This document shows, piece after piece, positions 2,388 to 60,405 of a stretch of 64,000 nucleotides of DNA (position 1 is its first letter; the number at the start of each line of letters is the position of its first letter). Under the pieces are notes generated by a model, which was given only the letters and a program-made list of their open reading frames with translations, did not search any database and was not told the DNA's origin. Where the stretch lies: NCBI GenBank assembly GCA_965261735.1, contig OZ253470.1, positions 357,728-421,727 of the forward strand, given 5' to 3'. The stretch is from Alphaproteobacteria bacterium (GTDB taxonomy: Bacteria; Pseudomonadota; Alphaproteobacteria; SHVV01). A program made the translations under genes and the position numbers.

Positions 2388-3089
2388 ATGACCAAAAAGG
2401 CGCAGGATAGTCACCCCGATACCAATGATCCCAATGCTCAATGGCGCACCGCGCGAACAGTGAATACCCCGACAGCGAGATTGTATTCTGAATGGACACT
2501 TCTGGTTCACGATCTCGAATACACTTTGAGCAGGGCACGCTTATGGAAGGAAATGGCTACGGCTGATCCACTTAGTGACCCTGCCGCCGAAGTAACCGTT
2601 AGTCTTTTCAGGGATGCAGTAATCTCGTTTGTTTCGTGCTTCGACAAACAACTATTCGTTTATCTCAATCCTGCCGTAGCACTTGGGACGCTAGATGGTG
2701 GCTTGGAGTATTTCGGCTGGTTACGAGACATGCGGAATACATGGGTGGCGCATAGAAGCGGGCCACACCGTCTTTGCGTCACCGCAATACTCATTGACGA
2801 AAAATCGGGGGACATTCAAGGTTTGGGTCACTTGTCACACTTGTACCTTGGTCCTAAGCCAGAAGCAGCAGATGACCTAATTCGTGTCATGGAGACAGCG
2901 TTGAACTATTCACGGCAAAAACAACGAGAGCATGAACTTCTTCTGCGCCACGACTTGGACAAGTTGGGTAAACAAGAGCGACTGAACTTGCCTCGTGCAA
3001 ACACCACGATTCCCGGGCCCACAGACATTCGAATGGGTCGAAAGAAGTTCGCCAACATCAAGCGTGGCCTGCCCCCGCGAAAGGGGTGA
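2388..3089 (+). CDS. hypothetical protein (no family recognised)
   Basis: 233-aa ORF from MTKKAQ within track ORF 2364..3089. Composition is protein-like and GC is lower than the window average. The start is uncertain. Confidence 0.4.
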   Translation: MTKKAQDSHPDTNDPNAQWRTARTVNTPTARLYSEWTLLVHDLEYTLSRARLWKEMATADPLSDPAAEVTVSLFRDAVISFVSCFDKQLFVYLNPAVALGTLDGGLEYFGWLRDMRNTWVAHRSGPHRLCVTAILIDEKSGDIQGLGHLSHLYLGPKPEAADDLIRVMETALNYSRQKQREHELLLRHDLDKLGKQERLNLPRANTTIPGPTDIRMGRKKFANIKRGLPPRKG

Positions 3090-3270
3090 GCGGCAATCCC
3101 GCGGCAGGCCCAGGAAGGAGCGCCCGGCCGACTCGACTTCTGCGTTCGCCGTGGTCATCGACAGGAAATTGACGGTTACGCAGGACGGCAAGTCCCGCGA
3201 GTGCACTCCTAAGTTATCATCCAGGCATGATCGCAATCACGGAATACATCGACCCTAACGCTCGCAGCCG

Positions 3271-3669
3271 CTACGCCTCCTGAAAGTCACCGCTTGAGAT
3301 GCCGCGCAGATAGAGCACCGGCAGAACCGCATCCAGCGACCGGGTGCGCCGTGCGAACGGCGGCAGGATGGCCGACGTGAAGCGGATGCGTGCGCTCGGG
3401 TCGACCGCGCCGCGATCGAGAAGCTTGGCCCGGCGCACCGGGACCGGACCGATCCCGGTCAGGATCTCGCGCTCCGGACCGTGACCATGCCGCACCAGGC
3501 GCCGCCGTCCATCTTCGGTACGAAGATGATCATGCGCGCTCAGCATGTCTGCGACTTCCGCCTCAACCGCCTGGGCCAAAAGCTGACGAGCGCCCGCGCG
3601 CAATAAATCCGTCAGCGGATCTGCAACATTCCCTGCCTGACGCAAGGCAACAACTGTATCGTCCAACAT
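3271..3669 (-). pseudogene. IS256-family (mutator-type) transposase, N-terminal fragment
   Basis: VRHGHGPEREILTGIGPVPVRRAKLLDR..FTSAILPPFARRTRSLDAVLPVLYLRGISSGDFQEA is the conserved N-terminal third of IS256-family transposases. It stops where homology should continue. Confidence 0.75.
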
Positions 3670-10415: not shown

Positions 10416-10699
10416 AGATGTCCGGATTAGGTAGCACATTAAATGTCCGCTGCTGTTGTTGGGCCTGTGGGGAAGTGAGAAGGCGCGGAGCGGCTTTCCA
10501 CTTATCCACAGGCTTGGTCGCCGAGCGGATTTAGGCGGCCCGTAAGCTTGACTTGTCGGTTTCGAGGTTGCCCTGCTGATCGTAGCGTCCGAGGCATCTG
10601 GGGCCGTGGAAGACAGCGAGCGTGCCGTCGGGATATTCATGGACGCGGACGCTGGCCTTGACGAAGTGCCGGCGGTGGGACTGTTCGGGGATCTGCAGG

Positions 10700-11085
10700 A
10701 GCAGCCTTCATGCCTTCGTTGCCGGGACCTCGGCGCCGGGCGCGCGGGTAATCACCGATGGCTGGAGCGGGTATCCTGGCCTGCCCGACCACGACCACCA
10801 GCCCAAGGTCGTCGGTGCAACGCCCGCCCATCTCGTGCTGATCTGGATCCATCGTGTGTTCTCGAACCTGAAGCGCTGGGCGCTCGGAACCTTCCATGGC
10901 CTGCGCCGCGCCCATCTGTGCCGCTATCTCGACGAGTTCGTGTTCCGCTGGAACCGCCGCCGCCACACCGCAACGGCCTTCGACACCCTGCTCGGCATCG
11001 GCACGCGCCTCCGACCCGCGGCGCTAGTGGCCGCGGCAGCCGAGCGGGGGTGGCGGTTCCCGACCTTGGACCCTTCTACAGGCAT
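10700..11085 (+). pseudogene. IS1595-family transposase C-terminal fragment
   Basis: ITDGWSGYPGL..HRVFSNLKRWALGTFHGLRRAHLCRYLDEFVFRWNRR is the conserved DDE C-terminal region of IS1595/ISXO2-like transposases. The limits are approximate. Confidence 0.6.
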
Positions 11086-11829
11086 TGTCATGTATGGACG
11101 CCCCCGGTGTTGCAAGGGGAAAACTGATTTGAATCGGCGGTAGAGCTTGCAGTCATGTATCCGGCCTTTTCGCTGCGGTACGCTGACCGCTGGCCCTGAT
11201 GGAATCCGAAAGATCGACGCCCAGTCAGACTAACGAGCTTGATGCTCGGACAATGCCTCGGGTTTGGCCGATCTCGGGTGGAACCCTGTTTCGCCATCAA
11301 ATCGTCGTCACCCTCGCAATTTGATCCCGGTTTGCCAGCTGGCTATGCCGGCGTCGGTCGGTAGATACGCTCGTACCTGAGCAGTGCCCAGGCGACACGG
11401 GCTGTCTTATTGGCCATGGCGACCAGCACCACGTTTGTCGGCCGCCGCGCCAGGAGCCGGTCGGTCCAGCCAGGCCCCGTGCCCGGCTTGGCGCGGCGCC
11501 AGCGCAGCACGGTTCGCGCACCGTGCACGAGCAAGCGCCTGATATAGCCATCCCCGCGCTTCGATATCCGTCCCAGTCTATCCTTGCCGCCACTCGAGTG
11601 CTGCCGGGGCACCAGACCGAGCCAGGCCGAAAGCTGTCGGCCCGAGCGGAACTGTGCGCCATCGCCGATCGTCGCGACCAGCGCCGTCGCGGTGATGACA
11701 CCGACGCCGGGGATCGTCGCAAGACGGCGGCTCGCCTCGTTGGAGCGGTGCCATGCCAAAAGCGTCACTTCCAGCTGCTTGATCCGGGCCTGAGCAGAGC
11801 GGAGCTGCTCAACCAGAGAGCCAAGCGCA
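11086..11829 (-). mobile_element. IS110/IS1111-like element type A, truncated copy (3' non-coding end plus C-terminal part of the transposase)
   Basis: Near-identical (a few SNPs) to 59126..59869. Identity stops after GAGCCAAGCGC at 11829. Confidence 0.8.
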
Positions 11830-12438: not shown

Positions 12439-13833
12439 GGCTGTGTCTCGAAAGTGGTGGAAATTTGAGGATGGCGTAATCTCCGGGTGACAAGACAACC
12501 ACCCAATCGGCGGCTAGCACCGCCAAGGAGATCACGCCATGAAGAACACTACCGAGACTTCCGCGCTTTCGCTACTGGCCAATGACGCCGGCTATGATCC
12601 GATCGAGGACCGGCTGCGGGAGAACATCAGATCCACGATCGAGGCCGTTTTTGAGGAGGAACTTGCGCAGTTTCTCGGGCGCTGCCGATACGGTCGAGAG
12701 GACGCGCTTCGGCAAGGGTATCGGAACGGGCACCGGGAGCGGCAACTGACGGGGACATTCGGGACCGAGAGGGTGAGCGTGCCGCGTGCGCGGATCGTTG
12801 AGGAAGACGGTCGGGCGTCGGAATGGCGTTCGCGGGCGCTGCCGCGCTACCAGCGGCTGACCAGAAAGGCCGAGGCGCTGATCGCTTCGGTGTATCTGTC
12901 CGGAACCAACACGCGGCGGGTGAAACGCGCGCTGTTCGGGCTCTTCCGGGGTGCTGTGAGCAAGGACGTTGTGAGCCGGGCGTGGCGCAAGGTGAAGGTC
13001 GATTGGGACGCCTGGTGCAGCCGTGGCCTCGCGGATGAGGATATCGTTCGGCTGATCCTTGACGGCACTGTGATCAAGATCCGACTGGACCGCAAGGCCA
13101 CCAACATCTCGGTTCTCGCGGCTATAGGGGTGCGCCGGGATGGCCAGAAGGTCTTGCTTTCGATCGGGAATATGGGCGGAGAAAGCCAGGCGGCGTGGCG
13201 CCAGTTCCTCGACGACCTTGATGCGCGTGGACTGAAACGGCCCGGGTTTGTCATCGTCGATGGCGCGCCGGGACTGGAGGCGGCTCTGTCGGCGCTTTGG
13301 GGCGATGACCTTCCCGTTCAACGCTGCACCGTGCACAAGCACCGCAACCTTCTGGGTCATGCTCCCAAACACATGCATGACGAGCTGAGCGAAGATTACC
13401 GCGATATGATCTATGCTGACACTGCCTCCGAGGTGGAAACCCGCCGCAAGGCGTTTGTCCGCAAGTGGCGGCTGAAATGCAGGGCCGTCGCGGACAGCCT
13501 CGCAGAAGCGGGCGACAAGCTCTTTACCTTCAACGCGCCTGTCCAAGAGCCAATGGAAATCAGCCCGAACGACCAACGCCATTGAGCGTCTCAACGAGGA
13601 GTTCAAGCGCCGGATCAAAACACAGACCGTGCTGCCGTGTCCCGAAACAGTGCCGATGCTCCTCTGGGCGCTCCTCGCTTCCGGCCAAATCCAGATGCGC
13701 AAAGTCGATGGATGGGAAACCCTCGATCAGCTAATCGCCGACGAAACCCTTGACCGCGCGGCCTGACCGCCGCAAAACTCAACCCGCTCGGAGAGGCGCC
13801 AAAACCAATTTCCACCACTTTCGAGACACAACC
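12439..13833 (+). mobile_element. IS256-family element, copy A
   Basis: IRs are GGCTGTGTCTCGAAAGTGGTGGAAAT / ATTTCCACCACTTTCGAGACACAACC. It is flanked by the 8-bp direct repeat GAGATCGC (12431-12438 and 13834-13841). Confidence 0.9.
12539..13766 (+). pseudogene. IS256 family transposase, frameshifted
   Basis: Identical to the intact 408-aa copies except for an extra A near 13532 (TTCAACGCG versus TTCACGCG). This shifts the frame (..FTFNAPVQEP.. instead of ..FTFTRLSKSQW..). Confidence 0.85.
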
Positions 13834-18789: not shown

Positions 18790-18970
18790 AGGTGGCTTTT
18801 GAGGGACTTGCGAGTGCGCTCCGGCTCACTGGCGGTGTCAATGCCGAGGATCTCTCTTCGGCGAGATGCGGGTCGCGGACATCACCTGCGCCCATGTTCG
18901 CCGCTGGTTCGACGGGTTGAGCGAGCGCCCAGGCAGCGCGCGGTCCCGCTGTCAGGCGCGCATTGCCTGA
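18790..18970 (+). pseudogene. tyrosine integrase N-terminal fragment
   Basis: One frame reads ..FGEMRVADITCAHVRRWFDGLSERPGSA.., typical of the SAM-like N-terminal domain of phage-type integrases. It terminates soon after and no catalytic domain follows. Confidence 0.4.
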
Positions 18971-19448
18971 TCGGTGATAGGGCGCGAATGCGGCCAATCG
19001 GGTTGCGGTTACAGGCGGATGCTCCAGCTCGTGGATATTGAGCGACCCTCGTGCTCTTCTTCGCCGGGCGTATCGTACTTTTTGGAGTGGCGCTCCACAT
19101 AGTCGTCGAATTCCTTTTGCGCCGCCTCGCGCTCCTCTTGAGTGGCTGTATTGTCCACAGCCGACTGAAGCCGCCGGAATTTGTGTTGTTCGGCGTGGAA
19201 TATTGGGTCTGACTCAATCTCGATGATGGTGGCTTCGGACAGCACGACGAGGCGGATTCTGAGCACATCCAGATCGGCACATCCCAAAATTCTGGCGCTG
19301 GAAGGCCCCCAGATTGTCGATCTGGCCTCCGTTCGCCGGCATCTGGCGTCCATAAACCGCTGACATCATCGAGACCGCGACAGACCCGAATATATTTGGC
19401 AGTCTCCAATCGAGACATGGATTGGCCGACCCGCGGCGTCTACTTTTT

Positions 19449-19894
19449 GGGGCTTATATACATGACTAGACACAACGTAAGAATAGGAGAAGTTGAAATA
19501 TGCGGTCAATAAAAGGATGCTTCATGCTCGTCGTAGCTTTCGTTTTGACGCTCAACAACTTCTTCTACGCCGTCAATCCCGCGGCGGCCAAGCCCATATT
19601 TGATTGGATCGACCCTTTCGCAGTCGTCGCCCTCGTACTCGTTTTCATGGAGAAAATCCTCGGTTCGATGCGCGGCGAAACCGAATGGCCTCGGCTCGTA
19701 GTAACGGTCCTGGTCGGGGCGCTGGTTCATTTATACGCCTACAATTACTTGGCGAAGATGGCAGGCAGTGGACTGGAGAGCGGAACCATGTGGCTGGTTA
19801 TGGTGCCGTTTACGGTTTCCTTGCTCATCTATGAGGGCTTTTTGCTGATCCGCGAAGCCAAATAAGGACTTGTCTAGTCATGTATATAAGCCCC
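19449..19894. mobile_element. non-autonomous TIR element carrying one passenger ORF
   Basis: Perfect 24-bp terminal inverted repeats GGGGCTTATATACATGACTAGACA (19449-19472; reverse complement at 19871-19894). They are flanked directly by the 8-bp direct repeat TACTTTTT (19441-19448 and 19895-19902). No transposase is present. Confidence 0.65.
19500..19865 (+). CDS. small membrane protein (about 4 TM helices), passenger of the TIR element
   Basis: 121 aa with AGGAGA 8 nt upstream of the ATG and four hydrophobic stretches. No family recognised. Confidence 0.55.
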   Translation: MRSIKGCFMLVVAFVLTLNNFFYAVNPAAAKPIFDWIDPFAVVALVLVFMEKILGSMRGETEWPRLVVTVLVGALVHLYAYNYLAKMAGSGLESGTMWLVMVPFTVSLLIYEGFLLIREAK

Positions 19895-20078
19895 TACTTT
19901 TTCACGGAGGCTGGAGAACGCCGATCGGACAGCAGAAAGAGCCTCCGATGCGAAGGCAGCGGAAGCGATCATACATTGCGCACCGGCAGGAACTGTCGAC
20001 GGTTGTGGCGTTGACGTCGACCAGTCAGAAGATACGATCTGCGCTTCGCATCCATCCCCGTCTCAAGTGAGGAGTGTA

Positions 20079-20768
20079 ATGAACTTGGGCAGACTCTGTA
20101 AGGCAGCCACCGTCGGCCTTGCCCTGAGCATGCTGGTGAACACTTCAGTGGATGCCGAGGCGCCGAATGCCGTCGACGAGATCCGCAAACTGTACGCGGA
20201 ATTTCAGACCTTCAAGAATGAAGATAAATTCCGCAGGGTCGGGTACGGTCGGTGCTGCAAATACTACCAGTGGATGAAGGAAGTCGAAGGCCTGCGAGGA
20301 AACGATGCTGGCGAATTTCTTCGGTCGTTCGGGATCCTCCCTGGAGAACTGATCTCCCTCGGGATGGAGTACTACCAAGGTCGCGGCAACCAGGGTGCAG
20401 CCAAAATGTGGGAGGCAAGCGTCGCGGCAATACTGAACCCGAAATCTGCCGAACGCTCGATCGATGCAGAGAACGACGAACCTGACCGGGTGATTGGACG
20501 GTGGGAGGTGCACATTAATCGGACTCTTTGGGAGAGCGTCACGATCCAGACCGTGGGCGGGAAACCCCTGTACGCCGGTGAATTCAAGGACGGATCGAGC
20601 CGAGAAATCGAACTCGTCGAGATACACGCGAAAGTAAGCGAGTTGCGAAGGTTCCGAGGCGCCGAAGGCTCGTCGTGGGATCCGAACGAGCAAGTAGCAA
20701 TTTCAAACGGTGGGAAGCTCAAGTTCTACGACGAACTCGGATACATCCGAACAGCGGAGCCACGCTGA
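20079..20768 (+). CDS. hypothetical secreted protein
   Basis: Start chosen at MNLGRLCKAATVGLALSMLVNTSVDAEA (signal-peptide-like), preceded by GAGGAG. Composition is protein-like. Confidence 0.55.
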   Translation: MNLGRLCKAATVGLALSMLVNTSVDAEAPNAVDEIRKLYAEFQTFKNEDKFRRVGYGRCCKYYQWMKEVEGLRGNDAGEFLRSFGILPGELISLGMEYYQGRGNQGAAKMWEASVAAILNPKSAERSIDAENDEPDRVIGRWEVHINRTLWESVTIQTVGGKPLYAGEFKDGSSREIELVEIHAKVSELRRFRGAEGSSWDPNEQVAISNGGKLKFYDELGYIRTAEPR

Positions 20769-20883
20769 AACGCCGTTTCGCATGGTCCGTTTGGCACCGC
20801 CGTATCAAGTGTATCCCGCGCATACTAACGAGAACTGATTCAAGAGAGTGCATTGACCAAGTCGTCGCCGGCTTGGCGATTGG

Positions 20884-30500: not shown

Positions 30501-31719
30501 CAATAGGGACGTGATCTTTCCCTACATCGGCGGAGAGGAGGTCAACACCAGCCCGGCCCATGCCCACCACCGCTACGTCATCAACTTCCGCGACTGGCCG
30601 CTGCGCCGCGCAGATATGGGTGCAACGTGGCTGGACGCAGACGAAGGCACGAGGCGCGACTGGCAGCGCGACGGGATCGTACCGCTTGACTATCCGGAGC
30701 AAGTGGCTGCGGACTATCCGGAGCTATTGTCAATTGTGGAAGAGCATGTTCGACCCACTCGACTAAGACTCGGAGAATCAGCGATTGACAGAGTCCACAA
30801 GCGTCGTTGGTGGTTGTATGCAAATGATCGCCCTCAGCTCCAACAGGCAGTCAGTAGCCTCGATCGCGTGCTTGTAATTTCCGAGATTGGCCAACATGGG
30901 GCGTTCGCATTTTTGCCAAGTCGCATGATCTTTTCCCATACGCTAAAGGTCTTCTCTCTCGATACTTACGCCGCCTTATGCGCCCTCCAGTCCCGCCCCC
31001 ACGAAATCTGGGCCCGTTTCTTCGGATCGTCGCTGGAAGATCGGCTTCGCTACACACCCTCCGACTGTTTCGAGACTTTCCCATTCCCCGAGAACTGGGA
31101 ATCGTGCCCCGCACTCGAAGCGGCGGGTGAGGCGTACTATGATTTGCGTGCGGCGTTGATGGCCGAGAACAACGAGGGACTTACAAAAACCTACAACCGT
31201 TTTCACGATCCGGACGAGCGCGATTCCCGGATCGACCGGCTCCGTCAGCTTCACGCCGCAATGGACCGCGTCGTTCTGGAAGCCTATGGCTGGACCGACA
31301 TTCCTACCGATTGCGAGTTCTTGTTGGATTACGAGATCGACGAAGAGACCTGGGGCAAGAAGAAGAAACCCTGGCGCTACCGCTGGCCCGATGAAGTCCG
31401 CGACGAAGTGCTCGCGCGCCTGTTGGCCCTCAACACCCAGCGCGCGGCCGAGGAGCGTATGGCCGGAAGTGGTGTGCGTCTTCCGGCGTTAGCCACCAGC
31501 ACCTACAAGCCTACCTCAACGAGTTCACCTTCCGCTTCAACAGGCGGTTCTACCCGTTCAACGCCTTCCGCTCATTGCTCGGCATCGCGGGCGACACCTC
31601 TGCTCCAACCTATGCCGAGCTTTACTCGGGAGAAGAGCCAAGCTTTGAGACCTGCAGATTCGCGATCTGGCGAGGCAAGCCGAACCCGACAGCAGCGCGG
31701 ACGGCGGCGCAATCGGTGA
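27598..31719 (+). CDS. large gamma-class N6-adenine DNA methyltransferase (Eco57I/type IIG-like, DrmMI-like), 3' end chimeric
   Basis: VLDPATGSGAFLVEA (motif I), YGVDKNSMAIDLARLSLWL, HALRHGDSLVG and AAVGNPPFLGG (motif IV) are present. From about 31470 the ORF reads an IS1595 remnant out of frame, so the last ~80 codons are not native. Confidence 0.8.
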   Translation: MADRARRNLIFAHQEWLGFVQPVGLLLSPIIMVDAQVVPDRNISWRQREFRDLLEEDGSGATARWIAPNLRRVFLGYLGWEEGDLLDALDHRDALEIALPELQVVLSPTWAVPAEEDPDAAWTMLVRVEDGGVDLDKPTGDGAGWNATRHARFERLLRETDVPIGLLCTDEGVRLIHAPRGESSGYVTFEFSQMALPAGRPILAAFDMLLSADALFGGYPEARLPALLAKSRDAQAEVSTRLSRQVLAALHELLRGFVSADARGGGTVTDIARRDPDHLYGGLITTLMRLVFVLYAEDRGLMPGHPVYQQHYSLGGLFARLRADAATWPDTMDQRFGAWAQLLSLFRLIHGGGGHAGLSFVARKGTLFDPHRFPFLEGRGPEQKPAIPMVPDASVWKVLQSLMVLDGERLSYRTLDVEQIGSVYEAIMGFRVELTPGRSIAVASPKRTGAAVVVDLDRLLELEGGKRAKASTIVDVVAALDRAVDRDATPDVVPAGTPVLQPTDERRRSGSHYTPRSLTEPIVSEALRPILERLGRNARPEDILDLKVLDPATGSGAFLVEACRQLSARLVEAWSVHGGPPDLPADEDELLHARRLVAQRCIYGVDKNSMAIDLARLSLWLVTLARDHEFTFIDHALRHGDSLVGLTRNQIEGFHWDAEAPSFQLGMETMEVQKHVARVSEMRQLIRELGDEAPEHELRELLDESERELRNVRRVADLVLTAFFDGGKPKERESKRVMYGSLLLGRDQAVTASPAAAKLPVAPLHWELEFPEVFERENPGFDAAVGNPPFLGGKRISTVLGNRFRDWLIALHPEANSNADLVAHFFRRVFELLRKGGGLGLVSTNTISQGDTRATGLRWICKNGGVIHRARRRLKWPGEAAVVVSVVHIAKGAYAGSRTLDDHRASVITAFLFHSGGNDDPVRLKANSEKSYVGMYLRGMGFTFDDTDTKNVATSLATMNRLIEANTRNRDVIFPYIGGEEVNTSPAHAHHRYVINFRDWPLRRADMGATWLDADEGTRRDWQRDGIVPLDYPEQVAADYPELLSIVEEHVRPTRLRLGESAIDRVHKRRWWLYANDRPQLQQAVSSLDRVLVISEIGQHGAFAFLPSRMIFSHTLKVFSLDTYAALCALQSRPHEIWARFFGSSLEDRLRYTPSDCFETFPFPENWESCPALEAAGEAYYDLRAALMAENNEGLTKTYNRFHDPDERDSRIDRLRQLHAAMDRVVLEAYGWTDIPTDCEFLLDYEIDEETWGKKKKPWRYRWPDEVRDEVLARLLALNTQRAAEERMAGSGVRLPALATSTYKPTSTSSPSASTGGSTRSTPSAHCSASRATPLLQPMPSFTREKSQALRPADSRSGEASRTRQQRGRRRNR

Positions 31720-31754
31720 GGTTCGACCATCCGGCGATCGGCGGACGGAGATAC
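31475..31754 (+). pseudogene. IS1595-family transposase C-terminal remnant
   Basis: The alternative frame reads GVSHQHLQAYLNEFTFRFNRRFYPFNAFRSLLGIAG.., the extreme C-terminus of IS1595-type transposases. It is interrupted by IS256 copy B at 31755. Confidence 0.6.
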
Positions 31755-33148
31755 GGTTGTGTCTCGAAAGTGGTGGAAATTGGTTTTGGCGCCTCTCCGA
31801 GCGGGTTGAGTTTTGCGGCGGTCAGGCTGCGCGGTCAAGGGTTTCGTCGGCGATTAGCTGATCGAGGGTTTCCCATCCATCGACTTTGCGCATCTGGATT
31901 TGGCCGGAAGCGAGGAGTGCCCAGAGGAGCATCGGCACTGTTTCGGGACACGGCAGCACGGTCTGTGTTTTGATCCGGCGCTTGAACTCCTCGTTGAGAC
32001 GCTCAATGGCGTTGGTCGTTCGGGCTGATTTCCATTGGCTCTTGGACAGGCGCGTGAAGGTAAAGAGCTTGTCGCCCGCTTCTGCGAGGCTGTCCGCGAC
32101 GGCCCTGCATTTCAGCCGCCACTTGCGGACAAACGCCTTGCGGCGGGTTTCCACCTCGGAGGCAGTGTCGGCATAGATCATATCGCGGTAATCTTCGCTC
32201 AGCTCGTCATGCATGTGTTTGGGAGCATGACCCAGAAGGTTGCGGTGCTTGTGCACGGTGCAGCGTTGAACGGGAAGGTCATCGCCCCAAAGCGCCGACA
32301 GAGCCGCCTCCAGTCCCGGCGCGCCATCGACGATGACAAACCCGGGCCGTTTCAGTCCACGCGCATCAAGGTCGTCGAGGAACTGGCGCCACGCCGCCTG
32401 GCTTTCTCCGCCCATATTCCCGATCGAAAGCAAGACCTTCTGGCCATCCCGGCGCACCCCTATAGCCGCGAGAACCGAGATGTTGGTGGCCTTGCGGTCC
32501 AGTCGGGTCTTGATCACAGTGCCGTCAAGGATCAGCCGAACGATATCCTCATCCGCGAGGCCACGGCTGCACCAGGCGTCCCAATCGACCTTCACCTTGC
32601 GCCACGCCCGGCTCACAACGTCCTTGCTCACAGCACCCCGGAAGAGCCCGAACAGCGCGCGTTTCACCCGCCGCGTGTTGGTTCCGGACAGATACACCGA
32701 AGCGATCAGCGCCTCGGCCTTTCTGGTCAGCCGCTGGTAGCGCGGCAGCGCCCGCGAACGCCATTCCGACGCCCGACCGTCTTCCTCAACGATCCGCGCA
32801 CGCGGCACGCTCACCCTCTCGGTCCCGAATGTCCCCGTCAGTTGCCGCTCCCGGTGCCCGTTCCGATACCCTTGCCGAAGCGCGTCCTCTCGACCGTATC
32901 GGCAGCGCCCGAGAAACTGCGCAAGTTCCTCCTCAAAAACGGCCTCGATCGTGGATCTGATGTTCTCCCGCAGCCGGTCCTCGAGCGGATCATAGCCGGC
33001 GTCATTGGCCAGTAGCGAAAGCGCGGAAGTCTCGGTAGTGTTCTTCATGGCGTGATCTCCTTGGCGGTGCTAGCCGCCGATTGGGTGGTTGTCTTGTCAC
33101 CCGGAGATTACGCCATCCTCAAATTTCCACCACTTTCGAGACACAGCC
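31755..33148 (-). mobile_element. IS256-family element, copy B (intact)
   Basis: Same IRs as copy A, with a perfect 8-bp target duplication GGAGATAC (31747-31754 and 33149-33156). Confidence 0.9.
31822..33048 (-). CDS. IS256 family transposase
   Basis: Intact 408-aa mutator-type transposase (..GYRNGHRERQLTGTFGTERVSVPRAR..LILDGTVIK..VIVDGAPGLEAAL..RCTVHKHRN..). Confidence 0.9.
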   Translation of the reverse strand: MKNTTETSALSLLANDAGYDPLEDRLRENIRSTIEAVFEEELAQFLGRCRYGREDALRQGYRNGHRERQLTGTFGTERVSVPRARIVEEDGRASEWRSRALPRYQRLTRKAEALIASVYLSGTNTRRVKRALFGLFRGAVSKDVVSRAWRKVKVDWDAWCSRGLADEDIVRLILDGTVIKTRLDRKATNISVLAAIGVRRDGQKVLLSIGNMGGESQAAWRQFLDDLDARGLKRPGFVIVDGAPGLEAALSALWGDDLPVQRCTVHKHRNLLGHAPKHMHDELSEDYRDMIYADTASEVETRRKAFVRKWRLKCRAVADSLAEAGDKLFTFTRLSKSQWKSARTTNAIERLNEEFKRRIKTQTVLPCPETVPMLLWALLASGQIQMRKVDGWETLDQLIADETLDRAA

Positions 33149-56523: not shown

Positions 56524-57917
56524 GGTTGTGTCTCGAAAGTGGTGGAAATTGGTTTTGGCGCCTCTCCGAGCGGGTTGAGTTTTGCGGCGGTCAGGCTGCG
56601 CGGTCAAGGGTTTCGTCGGCGATTAGCTGATCGAGGGTTTCCCATCCATCGACTTTGCGCATCTGGATTTGGCCGGAAGCGAGGAGTGCCCAGAGGAGCA
56701 TCGGCACTGTTTCGGGACACGGCAGCACGGTCTGTGTTTTGATCCGGCGCTTGAACTCCTCGTTGAGACGCTCAATGGTGTTGGTCGTTCGGGCTGATTT
56801 CCATTGGCTCTTGGACAGGCGCGTGAAGGTAAAGAGCTTGTCGCCCGCTTCTGCGAGGCTGTCCGCGACGGCCCTGCATTTCAGCCGCCACTTGCGGACA
56901 AACGCCTTGCGGCGGGTTTCCACCTCGGAGGCAGTGTCGGCATAGATCATATCGCGGTAATCTTCGCTCAGCTCGTCATGCATGTGTTTGGGAGCATGAC
57001 CCAGAAGGTTGCGGTGCTTGTGCACGGTGCAGCGTTGAACGGGAAGGTCATCGCCCCAAAGCGCCGACAGAGCCGCCTCCAGTCCCGGCGCGCCATCGAC
57101 GATGACAAACCCGGGCCGTTTCAGTCCACGCGCATCAAGGTCGTCGAGGAACTGGCGCCACGCCGCCTGGCTTTCTCCGCCCATATTCCCGATCGAAAGC
57201 AAGACCTTCTGGCCATCCCGGCGCACCCCTATAGCCGCGAGAACCGAGATGTTGGTGGCCTTGCGGTCCAGTCGGGTCTTGATCACAGTGCCGTCAAGGA
57301 TCAGCCGAACGATATCCTCATCCGCGAGGCCACGGCTGCACCAGGCGTCCCAATCGACCTTCACCTTGCGCCACGCCCGGCTCACAACGTCCTTGCTCAC
57401 AGCACCCCGGAAGAGCCCGAACAGCGCGCGTTTCACCCGCCGCGTGTTGGTTCCGGACAGATACACCGAAGCGATCAGCGCCTCGGCCTTTCTGGTCAGC
57501 CGCTGGTAGCGCGGCAGCGCCCGCGAACGCCATTCCGACGCCCGACCGTCTTCCTCAACGATCCGCGCACGCGGCACGCTCACCCTCTCGATCCCGAATG
57601 TCCCCGTCAGTTGCCGCTCCCGGTGCCCGTTCCGATACCCTTGCCGAAGCGCGTCCTCTCGACCGTATCGGCAGCGCCCGAGAAACTGCGCAAGTTCCTC
57701 CTCAAAAACGGCCTCGATCGTGGATCTGATGTTCTCCCGCAGCCGGTCCTCGAGCGGATCATAGCCGGCGTCATTGGCCAGTAGCGAAAGCGCGGAAGTC
57801 TCGGTAGTGTTCTTCATGGCGTGATCTCCTTGGCGGTGCTAGCCGCCGATTGGGTGGTTGTCTTGTCACCCGGAGATTACGCCATCCTCAAATTTCCACC
57901 ACTTTCGAGACACAGCC
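56524..57917 (-). mobile_element. IS256-family element, copy D (intact)
   Basis: Same IRs, with an 8-bp target duplication CATGCTGG (56516-56523 and 57918-57925) inside the IS1182-like element. Confidence 0.9.
56591..57817 (-). CDS. IS256 family transposase
   Basis: 408 aa, two substitutions relative to copy B. Confidence 0.9.
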   Translation of the reverse strand: MKNTTETSALSLLANDAGYDPLEDRLRENIRSTIEAVFEEELAQFLGRCRYGREDALRQGYRNGHRERQLTGTFGIERVSVPRARIVEEDGRASEWRSRALPRYQRLTRKAEALIASVYLSGTNTRRVKRALFGLFRGAVSKDVVSRAWRKVKVDWDAWCSRGLADEDIVRLILDGTVIKTRLDRKATNISVLAAIGVRRDGQKVLLSIGNMGGESQAAWRQFLDDLDARGLKRPGFVIVDGAPGLEAALSALWGDDLPVQRCTVHKHRNLLGHAPKHMHDELSEDYRDMIYADTASEVETRRKAFVRKWRLKCRAVADSLAEAGDKLFTFTRLSKSQWKSARTTNTIERLNEEFKRRIKTQTVLPCPETVPMLLWALLASGQIQMRKVDGWETLDQLIADETLDRAA

Positions 57918-59125: not shown

Positions 59126-59385
59126 CATTGTCATGTATGGACGCCCCCGGTGTTGCAAGGGGAAAACTGATTTGAATCGGCGGTAGAGCTTGCAGTCATG
59201 TATCCGGCCTTTTCGCTGCGGTACGCTGACCGCTGGCCCTGATGGAATCCGAAAGATCGACGCCCAGTCAGACTAACGAGCTTGATGCTCGGACAATGCC
59301 TCGGGTTTGGCCGATCTCGGGTGGAACCCTGTTTCGCCATCAAATCGTCGTCACCCTCGCAATTTGATCCCGGTTTGCCAGCTGG
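59126..59385 (-). ncRNA. candidate bridge/seek RNA region of IS110-family element type A (speculative)
   Basis: A ~260-nt non-coding end 3' of the transposase. It is conserved in the truncated copy at 11086..11342. There is no credible ORF and I did not fold it. Confidence 0.3.
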
Positions 59386-60405
59386 CTATGCCGGCGTCGG
59401 TCGGTAGATACGCTCGTACCTGAGCAGTGCCCAGGCGACACGGGCTGCCTTATTGGCCATGGCGACCAGCACCACGTTTGTCGGCCGCCGCGCCAGGAGC
59501 CGGTCGGTCCAGCCAGGCCCCGTGCCCGGCTTGGCGCGGCGCCAGCGCAGCACGGTTCGCGCACCATGCACGAGCAAGCGCCTGATATAGCCATCCCCGC
59601 GCTTCGATATCCGTCCCAGTCTATCCTTGCCGCCACTCGAGTGCTGCCGGGGCACCAGACCGAGCCAGGCCGAAAGCTGTCGGCCCGAGCGGAACTGTGC
59701 GCCATCGCCGATCGTCGCGACCAGCGCCGTCGCGGTGATGACACCGACGCCGGGGATCGTCGCAAGACGGCGGCTCGCCTCGTTGGAGCGGTGCCATGCC
59801 AAAAGCGTCACTTCCAGCTGCTTGATCCGGGCCTGAGCAGAACGGAGCTGCTCAACCAGAGAGCCAAGCGCCTCGCGTGCCAGAGGCGGCAGTCGCACAT
59901 CGCCGGGATCTTCGATAATGGCAACCAGTTCCTCCACCTTCGACGCCCCCTGAGCGACGATCAGTCCGAACTCCGCACAGTGGCCGCGCAGCGCATTGAT
60001 CACCATCGTGCGTTGACGGACCAACAGCTCTCGGGCCCGGTGCAGCATCAGAACCGACTGCTGCTCGGCGCTTTTCGCCGGTGCAAAGCGCATCGTCGGA
60101 CGCGTCACTGCCTCACAGATCGTTTCCGCATCCGCTGCGTCGTTCTTATTCGTTTTGACGAAGGGACGAACGTATTGAGGCGGAATCAGCTGAACTTTGT
60201 GCCCGTGTGCTTGCAGTTCCCGAGCCCAATAGTGCGCAGAGGCACAGGCTTCCATACCGACAAGACAGGATGGCAATCCGGCGAAGAACGCCAGCACCTT
60301 CCCGCGGCGCAGCTTCCGCCGTAGTACCGGTCGTCCCTCACCATCAGCACCGTGAACCTGGAACACCGTCTTTGCCAGATCGAACCCAATTGTCGTAATA
60401 TCCAT
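59386..60405 (-). CDS. IS110 family transposase
   Basis: 339 aa with IGFDLAKTVF, MEACASAHYW, KNDAADAETI, and C-terminal TIPGVGVITATAL..LSAWLGLVPRQHSSGGK. Confidence 0.9.
   Translation of the reverse strand: MDITTIGFDLAKTVFQVHGADGEGRPVLRRKLRRGKVLAFFAGLPSCLVGMEACASAHYWARELQAHGHKVQLIPPQYVRPFVKTNKNDAADAETICEAVTRPTMRFAPAKSAEQQSVLMLHRARELLVRQRTMVINALRGHCAEFGLIVAQGASKVEELVAIIEDPGDVRLPPLAREALGSLVEQLRSAQARIKQLEVTLLAWHRSNEASRRLATIPGVGVITATALVATIGDGAQFRSGRQLSAWLGLVPRQHSSGGKDRLGRISKRGDGYIRRLLVHGARTVLRWRRAKPGTGPGWTDRLLARRPTNVVLVAMANKAARVAWALLRYERIYRPTPA

Follow-up and report, generated by a model that had tools for sequence, protein, structure and literature searches.

How does a small unit of DNA that encodes no transposase come to lie between perfect inverted repeats, and what is the gene that it carries? 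This question is raised by positions 19449-19894 of the window, by which we mean the whole stretch of 64,000 nucleotides analysed here from an alphaproteobacterial assembly (contig OZ253470.1), where two terminal inverted repeats (TIRs) enclose a single short open reading frame (ORF). We conclude that this element is very probably a mobile insertion cassette (MIC), a DNA transposon that is not autonomous: it carries one passenger gene and would be mobilised in trans, most likely by an enzyme of the IS1595 family.

A repeat search of the window recovered, at the same coordinates, the perfect 24-bp TIRs, the 8-bp target-site duplication (TSD) and the 446-bp unit that an initial annotation had described from the sequence. 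The two terminal arms (24 nt each, 100% complementary) are separated by 398 nt, and the order in the window is ...GGCGTC - TACTTTTT - GGGGCTTATATACATGACTAGACA ... TGTCTAGTCATGTATATAAGCCCC - TACTTTTT - CACGGAGG..., with the following features:

19441-19448, no strand: left copy of the TSD, TACTTTTT (sequence and repeat search; a single copy is present in the empty-site contigs).
19449-19472, plus strand: left TIR, GGGGCTTATATACATGACTAGACA (repeat search; homology to copies in other genomes ends at its outer base).
19473-19499, plus strand: 5′ leader of the cargo gene, with the Shine-Dalgarno sequence AGGAGA at 19485-19490 (kept among copies, 7 of the 27 sites being variable).
19500-19865, plus strand: cargo gene, 121 amino acids, predicted four-helix inner-membrane protein of an unnamed family (ORF, homologues, substitution rates, AlphaFold, metatranscriptome contigs).
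19871-19894, minus strand: right TIR, TGTCTAGTCATGTATATAAGCCCC, perfect reverse complement of the left TIR (repeat search; homology boundary with other copies).
19895-19902, no strand: right copy of the TSD, TACTTTTT (a joint 19439->19894 skips 454 bases in runs X8, X29 and X32).

In the repeat search the direct repeat comprises nine matching letters, (C)TACTTTTT, at 19440-19448 and 19894-19902. The ninth of these, C, belongs to the right TIR as its final base, and other copies show a target duplication of 8 bp and not 9. The TIR 24-mer occurs at only two sites in the window even when 3 mismatches are allowed, where 0 are expected (100 shuffles). The cargo ORF, which is the only sizeable reading frame inside the element and fills 82% of it, has its ATG 9 nt downstream of AGGAGA, so that the reading frame, its length and its ribosome-binding site are all as first annotated. 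Searches of Pfam and NCBIfam found no match to a transposase family in this ORF, and the element holds no partner gene. The site is intergenic, and the G+C content of the element is about 0.49-0.55, compared with 0.6-0.7 about one kilobase away.

For the empty-site test, Logan contigs were placed on 18900-20800 for the four runs in which the flanks are best represented. One contig each in runs X8, X29 and X32 carries the exact empty site, with a joint from 19439 to 19894 that leaves out 454 bases, the sum of the 446-bp element and a single copy of the 8-bp repeat; the nine letters CTACTTTTT fit both sides of this joint. The depth of these contigs (5-6) is that of the single-copy right flank. 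The locus had been read as the footprint of a transposition event and not as an invertible switch, with ..GGCGTC TACTTTTT CACGGAGG.. as the predicted empty site, and it is this sequence that is present in the three runs.

To count copies elsewhere, each prokaryotic species was represented by one genome and scanned with a degenerate TIR pattern, and contigs reached by way of the cargo protein were added. The scan gave 44 matching stretches, found in metagenome-assembled genomes (MAGs) labelled as Gammaproteobacteria, Rhodospirillaceae, other Alphaproteobacteria and Rhodobacterales/Paracoccaceae, as well as Candidatus Marinacidobacterales (Acidobacteriota), Granulosicoccaceae and Gemmatimonadetes. 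We found 33 complete copies of the cassette at 28 distinct flank pairs, with conserved TIRs. A perfect 8-bp duplication is present at 22 distinct sites, all different and 84% A+T: many of the other copies have an 8-bp TSD of their own. Furthermore, DNA homology between copies starts and stops exactly at the TIR tips. By the empty site, the other copies and these sharp boundaries, element 19449-19894 is a transposition product.

The same arms could also be read as an inverted repeat that arose by chance, or as a hairpin, invertible or regulatory, that surrounds a resident gene and does not move, and in an end-to-end transcript both TIRs would indeed pair as a 24-bp stem. Against the empty site in three runs, the 22 other sites with differing perfect TSDs, the zero chance matches expected and TIR substitutions whose mirroring is inconsistent across the clade, we give this account practically no chance of being right. 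One hint of selection for pairing, a mirrored A>C in both TIRs of locus L014, was discarded: other members of the clade have the change on one arm only.

The transposon is abundant in some genomes, with about a dozen copies; a Rhodospirillaceae MAG has 11, and the eight identical copies in one Gammaproteobacteria MAG point to recent activity. Two identical copies on the same Gammaproteobacteria MAG contig (L025 1972-2417 and L035 283-728) have reciprocally swapped flanks (TAAATAAA/TTTTTTTT versus TTTTTTTT/TAAATAAA), which indicates that homologous recombination between them has inverted the DNA in between. The runs with the element include sponge metagenomes and those of several coded host organisms. 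Among sponge-associated bacteria that are phylogenetically far apart, the cassette has spread by horizontal transfer.

The cargo ORF is a real gene under purifying selection. Pairwise Nei-Gojobori estimates of the ratio of nonsynonymous to synonymous substitution rates (dN/dS) are 0.09-0.25 between proteobacterial and acidobacterial copies of the cassette (dS up to 0.28), and 0.22-0.35 relative to relatives without intact TIRs (dS 0.26-0.87). The frame is open over 121 codons in 29 of the 33 copies. Sponge-associated metatranscriptome contigs span 19479-19864 with a summed depth of 16-175, which is consistent with transcription; two sponge metatranscriptomes (X21 and X22) were uninformative. 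These substitution rates and contigs bear out the proposal of a transposase-less unit with a genuine gene as its mini-cargo. Were the ORF instead a neutral hitch-hiker or an incidental frame, intact only through a very recent burst of copying, one would expect many copies within a genome to be identical or nearly so, as they are (8 identical in one MAG), and one would expect no family, fold or defence-library match to suggest a function, as is the case. The dN/dS values, both between clades and relative to relatives, largely refute this; in addition, the old insertions L012 and L064 keep an intact ORF between decayed TIRs, and syntenic chromosomal homologues extend down to 54% identity. We therefore regard a neutral ORF as very unlikely.

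The cargo is predicted to be a small four-helix inner-membrane protein with both termini inside (N-in/C-in). The AlphaFold2 model (27-sequence alignment; predicted local distance difference test, pLDDT, 86; predicted template modelling score, pTM, 0.80) has helices at residues 2-25, 27-57, 63-87 and 97-120, in support of the four-helix membrane protein that had been read from the translation, and the distribution of K+R favours the N-in/C-in topology. The most conserved segment is the outward loop 85-96 (loop 3), within YNYLAKMAGSGLESG, with a mean conservation of 0.96. The protein has 72 homologues and more than 140 cluster members. No family name was obtained at threshold from Pfam (single sequence and 27 members), NCBIfam or PADLOC, and Foldseek returned no fold match at E <= 0.001 in PDB or BFVD; a profile search of 1.84 billion representatives gave 27 matches, all unnamed, whose cluster names and source annotations are uninformative. 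Because neither the family libraries nor the PDB and viral folds give a match, the earlier suggestion of a holin-, toxin- or immunity-like peptide is unsupported. Our working guess is that the protein may confer a host-level benefit at the periplasmic face of the membrane, for example protection or immunity.

Where might such a gene come from? Homologues without TIRs, with amino acid identities of 76% (P0023) and 54-55% (P0052 and P0046; relatives annotated Nitrospinae/Nitrospinota), share the block RnpA-YidC-FliG_C-like-methyltransferase-(gene)-SDR-SDR-...-PGA_cap, in which the homologue lies <=13 bp before the downstream SDR gene. No traces of TIRs were found around these block homologues. 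Because TIR-less homologues occupy a conserved block, the cargo was probably captured from a Nitrospinota-like chromosomal gene. A maximum-likelihood tree unites the cassette copies with their nearest relatives in a single clade (89/99), and the distant outgroup attaches among the syntenic groups. The clade's deeper members, too, occupy mobile settings, namely a 40.6-kb circular RepA/ParA contig and a site that adjoins HigBA and MuB, and have an intact ORF inside decayed, GC-ameliorated TIR remnants. The simplest reading of these sequences would be that a chromosomal gene was captured once, then spread horizontally and occasionally became fixed. A 75%-identical cargo homologue (gene 3001-3378) is present on L063, a 40.6-kb circular contig with RepA_C and ParA-type genes; a small circular replicon of this type is a possible vehicle for transfer between cells.

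The ends of the cassette are not restricted to this cargo. In an Alphaproteobacteria MAG, a 1,420-bp unit (L048 1730-3149, TSD TATGCGAA) carries TnpB only (PF07282 5e-20, PF01385 2e-11) and shares only the ~24-bp ends with the window element. Decayed derivatives of such TnpB cassettes measure 1,218, 766 and 470 bp, each with its own perfect 8-bp TSD, and further TnpB copies are found in Rhodobacterales and Paracoccaceae MAGs. The TnpB cassettes have the TIR family GGGGCTTATATCSATGACTTGACA and perfect 8-bp TSDs (TATGCGAA, TTTCACAA, AACGTTTA, CAAGTTTA), and the same TIR family bounds derivatives of 172-220 bp, the size of MITEs (miniature transposable elements with inverted repeats). The sibling units are:

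L048 1730-3149; L059 4084-5301; L053 893-1362; L020 3878-4643; L017 1150-4385; L041 from 6366: TnpB-only cassettes and their deletion derivatives.
L036 155-576: 422-bp non-coding unit of Acidobacteriota, with perfect 20-nt TIR GGGACTTATAACGATTGATT, ends GGGACTTATAAC... and TSD TTTGAAAT.
L043 5537-5708 (= L072 548-739): 172-bp non-coding MITE of Gemmatimonadetes, with TSD CTTGAATT.
L033 894-1113: 220-bp non-coding unit with related termini.

The sequences of the 422-, 172- and 220-bp units suggest a wider "GGGRCTTATA" end family. In the TnpB cassettes the better-conserved TIR is just past the 3′ end of TnpB, where the omegaRNA is expected. No DDE transposase gene was found in any of the TnpB or MITE-size sibling units.

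The closest annotated relatives of the sibling TnpB (42% amino acid identity) are on Bosea plasmids (L074 2336-3694 and L075 2325-3696, one of them from the sponge Callyspongia), where genes annotated as "RNA-guided endonuclease TnpB" form solo cassettes of ~1.36 kb with ~24-bp TIRs (GGCTATCCGGCATCCGAGGTTGAT) and perfect 8-bp TSDs (CTTACAGC, CTTTGTTA). ISAcr1, an element of the IS1595 family, has CTATCCGG in common with their ends, and no further copy of these ends was found in plasmids. Since the window cassette and the TnpB cassettes have their ends in common, these results suggest that one hidden transposase mobilises several single-gene cargos.

The sibling units also bear on whether the 121-aa protein might itself do the moving, as a new and very small factor for transposition or transfer, which would make the unit autonomous. 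It is the sole gene of a recently active element for which no partner transposase was found; yet it is a four-helix membrane protein without a nuclease or recombinase motif, the same ends move TnpB cassettes and MITEs of 172-470 bp that lack this gene, and its homologues are stable without TIRs in a syntenic operon-like block. Self-mobilisation is thus highly improbable, and a transposase acting in trans is the reading that we retain.

Next we consider which transposase this might be. Plasmid blastn searches, with the element and with the TIR alone, yielded either nothing or a single irrelevant match, and scans of viral contigs and JGI metagenomes with a consensus of three end variants returned only conserved phage sequence and the 172-bp MITE already described. 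In ~350 kb around the copies in copy-rich MAGs, no IS1595 (PF12762-type) motif was found. The window itself does contain debris of IS1595 transposases, as the initial annotation had stated, with PF12762 matches at 10586-11143 (2.5e-17) and 31395-31973 (0.0017); no relation between these fragments and the cassette ends could be demonstrated.

The IS1595 family is known for passenger genes. Siguier, Gagnevin and Chandler reportedly described it in 2009 together with its passenger-carrying relatives (cited in PMC3129680). As reference elements we read the annotated ISAcr1 (1,080 bp) and a Tardibacter insertion sequence (IS) of 1,150 bp, which have perfect 8-bp TSDs and the inverted repeats (IRs) CTTGCCTATCCGGTTGAC and CGTGCCTATCCGCTTGAC. 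In register with these, the TIR of the cassette has two blocks in common, GCYTAT (positions 4-9) and TGAC (positions 15-18). The end consensus of the ISNwi1 group, which we take to be ggnnatTAT, fits GGGGCTTAT. By the 8-bp TSD and the shared end motifs, IS1595 is the best-supported candidate for the mobiliser, as a candidate and not a demonstrated membership, and the call is evenly balanced. Of the IS1595 link first proposed, what holds is that the 8-bp TSD and the end motifs fit verified members of the family; an IS1595 element with these very ends was not found.

The mobiliser may instead be a DDE transposase of another family that makes 8-bp duplications (IS6-like, ISL3, IS256/Mutator-like or undescribed), an alternative that we consider unlikely but take seriously. 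It would account for the lack of any IS1595 element with these ends, for the lack of an IS1595 transposase motif in the ~350 kb around the copies and for the IR match to verified IS1595 elements at just 9/18 positions; furthermore, TnpB is known to be carried by several families of DDE transposons and also occurs solo within matching ends (PMC10691335). Against it, the ends of the IS256 elements in the window (GGTTGTGTCTCGAAAGTGG) are unrelated to those of the cassette, and GCYTAT and TGAC stand in register with the IS1595 IRs, with a fitting 8-bp TSD. The presumed ISNwi1-group consensus, ggnnatTAT, with its fit to GGGGCTTAT, likewise speaks for IS1595.

Two leads to a transposase were rejected. 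The first, a putative cognate IS1595 IR, GGGGCGTCCATACATGAC, at 11087-11104 (beside the PF12762 fragment) and 59130-59147, is the start of a 746-bp IS110/IS1111-type repeat, and its 16/22 match to the TIR is at chance level, with an expectation of ~0.5 per window. This IS110/IS1111-type element is duplicated (11083-11828 and 59126-59871), with a transposase gene at 59386-60405 on the minus strand and subterminal inverted repeats GGGGCGTCCATAC at 59130-59147 and ~60468, the latter beyond the transposase gene; one copy truncates the IS1595 transposase fragment at 10586-11143. The second, an ISNCY-family transposase that lies with TnpB between TIR-like ends in L017, is a nested IS5-like insertion in the AT-rich TIR of the cassette, and its intact relatives, found in ten contexts, are bounded by TAGTGTCAGCC... 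and flanked by 4-bp duplications of the form YTAR. This 1.8-kb IS (NF033593; no Pfam match) has IS5-like ends TAGTGTCAGCCAGAAAACC and is located at ~1052-2854 in each of L082-L091 and at ~2547-4373 in L017. It is present in at least 10 copies, >99.7% identical and some of them in tandem, in one metagenome, and its protein family has >1,600 relatives in a large database.

The window as a whole is an IS-dense region. It holds three IS256-family copies of ~1,394 bp (12439-13833, 31755-33148 and 56524-57917), with the TIR GGYTGTGTCTCGAAAGTGGT and perfect 8-bp TSDs (GAGATCGC, GGAGATAC, CATGCTGG). The left flank of the cassette, 18964-19411, has a summed contig depth of 100-1000 in four metagenome runs, compared with 4-7 for the right flank, and is therefore itself high-copy in these communities. 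Within it are a 24-nt inverted repeat that is not perfect (19205-19228/19364-19387) and a minus-strand ORF for an unnamed protein of 114 aa; no second copy of the stretch was found elsewhere in the window or among the collected loci.

Several observations weigh against the reading of the element as a trans-mobilised cassette with a captured and selected gene. No transposase gene between GGGGCTTATAT... ends was found in the 44 genome loci, plasmids, viral contigs and JGI metagenomes, and for this reason both the trans-mobilisation and the IS1595 assignment are inferred. The TIR is identical to the IS1595 IRs at only 9/18 bases. The direction of capture, from a Nitrospinota gene into the cassette, is inferred from the tree of a short protein with long outgroup branches. 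As for the cargo, a few copies have indels in the ORF, no sigma-70 consensus promoter was found inside the element on the coding strand, and because the element is multi-copy and the contigs are assembled, carry-over of DNA may lie behind the contigs from RNA libraries.

Under the mechanism that we propose, a DDE-type transposase encoded elsewhere would bind both ends of the cassette, cut the target with an 8-bp stagger and insert the cassette, with a preference for A+T-rich octamers; in the window, the cassette would have landed in the intergenic TACTTTTT. The passenger gene would have been captured from an operon-like block of a Nitrospinota-like chromosome and kept by purifying selection, and the cassette would then have spread across distant sponge-associated bacteria and been amplified in some genomes. 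A bolder version, which we hold to be improbable, sees a minimal "beneficial-gene shuttle" in the sponge holobiont: a gene from a Nitrospinota operon, acting at the periplasmic face, for example as an orphan immunity or protection factor against a community-wide membrane-targeting agent or phage, would be selected in every recipient, and one hidden DDE enzyme would also shuttle TnpB. If true, such a shuttle would explain the cross-phylum spread, the purifying selection and the retention of the gene after decay of the ends, and one hidden enzyme would service a small ecosystem of single-gene cassettes.

Taken together, these results offer a clear natural case of a gene-carrying transposon at the smallest possible size, 446 bp with 82% coding, for which the chain of evidence is complete: an empty site, many independent insertions, a cargo under purifying selection and a likely source gene on a chromosome. 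They document that Proteobacteria, Acidobacteriota and probably Nitrospinota have recently exchanged DNA horizontally within sponge microbiomes, and flag an unnamed, conserved family of four-helix membrane proteins as worth testing. Furthermore, the ends shared with TnpB cassettes bear on how TnpB and other small genes spread.

With respect to known systems, MICs are an established class of transposase-less, gene-carrying units bracketed by inverted repeats; MIC231 of Bacillus cereus is mobilised in trans by IS231A, and mics with qnrD and qnrS2 are known (PMC3913671, PMC3129680). Because the window element is bracketed by paired inverted repeats, lacks a transposase, is flanked by a target duplication and carries an unrelated passenger coding sequence, it belongs to this class (PMC3913671, PMC3129680). 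Like MICs, which enclose one or a few non-transposition genes between two inverted repeats with a TSD, it would presumably owe its mobility to a cognate IS in trans. Unlike them, it measures 446 bp where MICs are ~1.5-2 kb, its ends are unrelated to those of IS231 (IS4 family), which moves MIC231, its cargo is an unnamed membrane protein in place of an enzyme or resistance gene, and it is high-copy and cross-phylum in uncultured sponge symbionts, its partner IS not having been found.

The element shares the 8-bp TSD and the IR blocks GCYTAT (4-9) and TGAC (15-18) with the IS1595 elements ISAcr1 and the Tardibacter IS; it differs in having no DDE_Tnp_IS1595 gene and a TIR identity of 9/18. TnpB has been described between the inverted repeats of DDE transposons, and for solo TnpBs in matching ends movement in trans is assumed (Altae-Tran et al. 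2023, PMC10691335). The siblings L048, L059, L017 and L041 and the Bosea relatives are of this kind, carrying only TnpB with 8-bp TSDs, whereas the window element has a membrane-protein gene in place of TnpB and omegaRNA and shares only the ~24-bp ends. That a MITE-sized unit carries a gene was initially judged unusual; the gene is there, but the rarity was overstated, since MICs are established (PMC3913671, PMC3129680) and prokaryotic MITEs often encode ORFs of unknown function (2024 review, PMC10969869). Like the ORF-containing MITEs ERIC, BOX, QMITE1 and RPE (PMC10969869), the element is MITE-sized, non-autonomous and multi-copy, with TIRs and a TSD; in contrast to them, its ORF constitutes an entire gene, ribosome-binding site included, which is under purifying selection, has chromosomal homologues outside the element and takes up 82% of the unit. 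Collectively, these comparisons place the element in a known class with a new cargo and no new kind of mechanism, distinguished by its very small size, the unusual completeness of the evidence for its mobility, a selected cargo with an identifiable source, its spread across phyla and the ends that it shares with TnpB.

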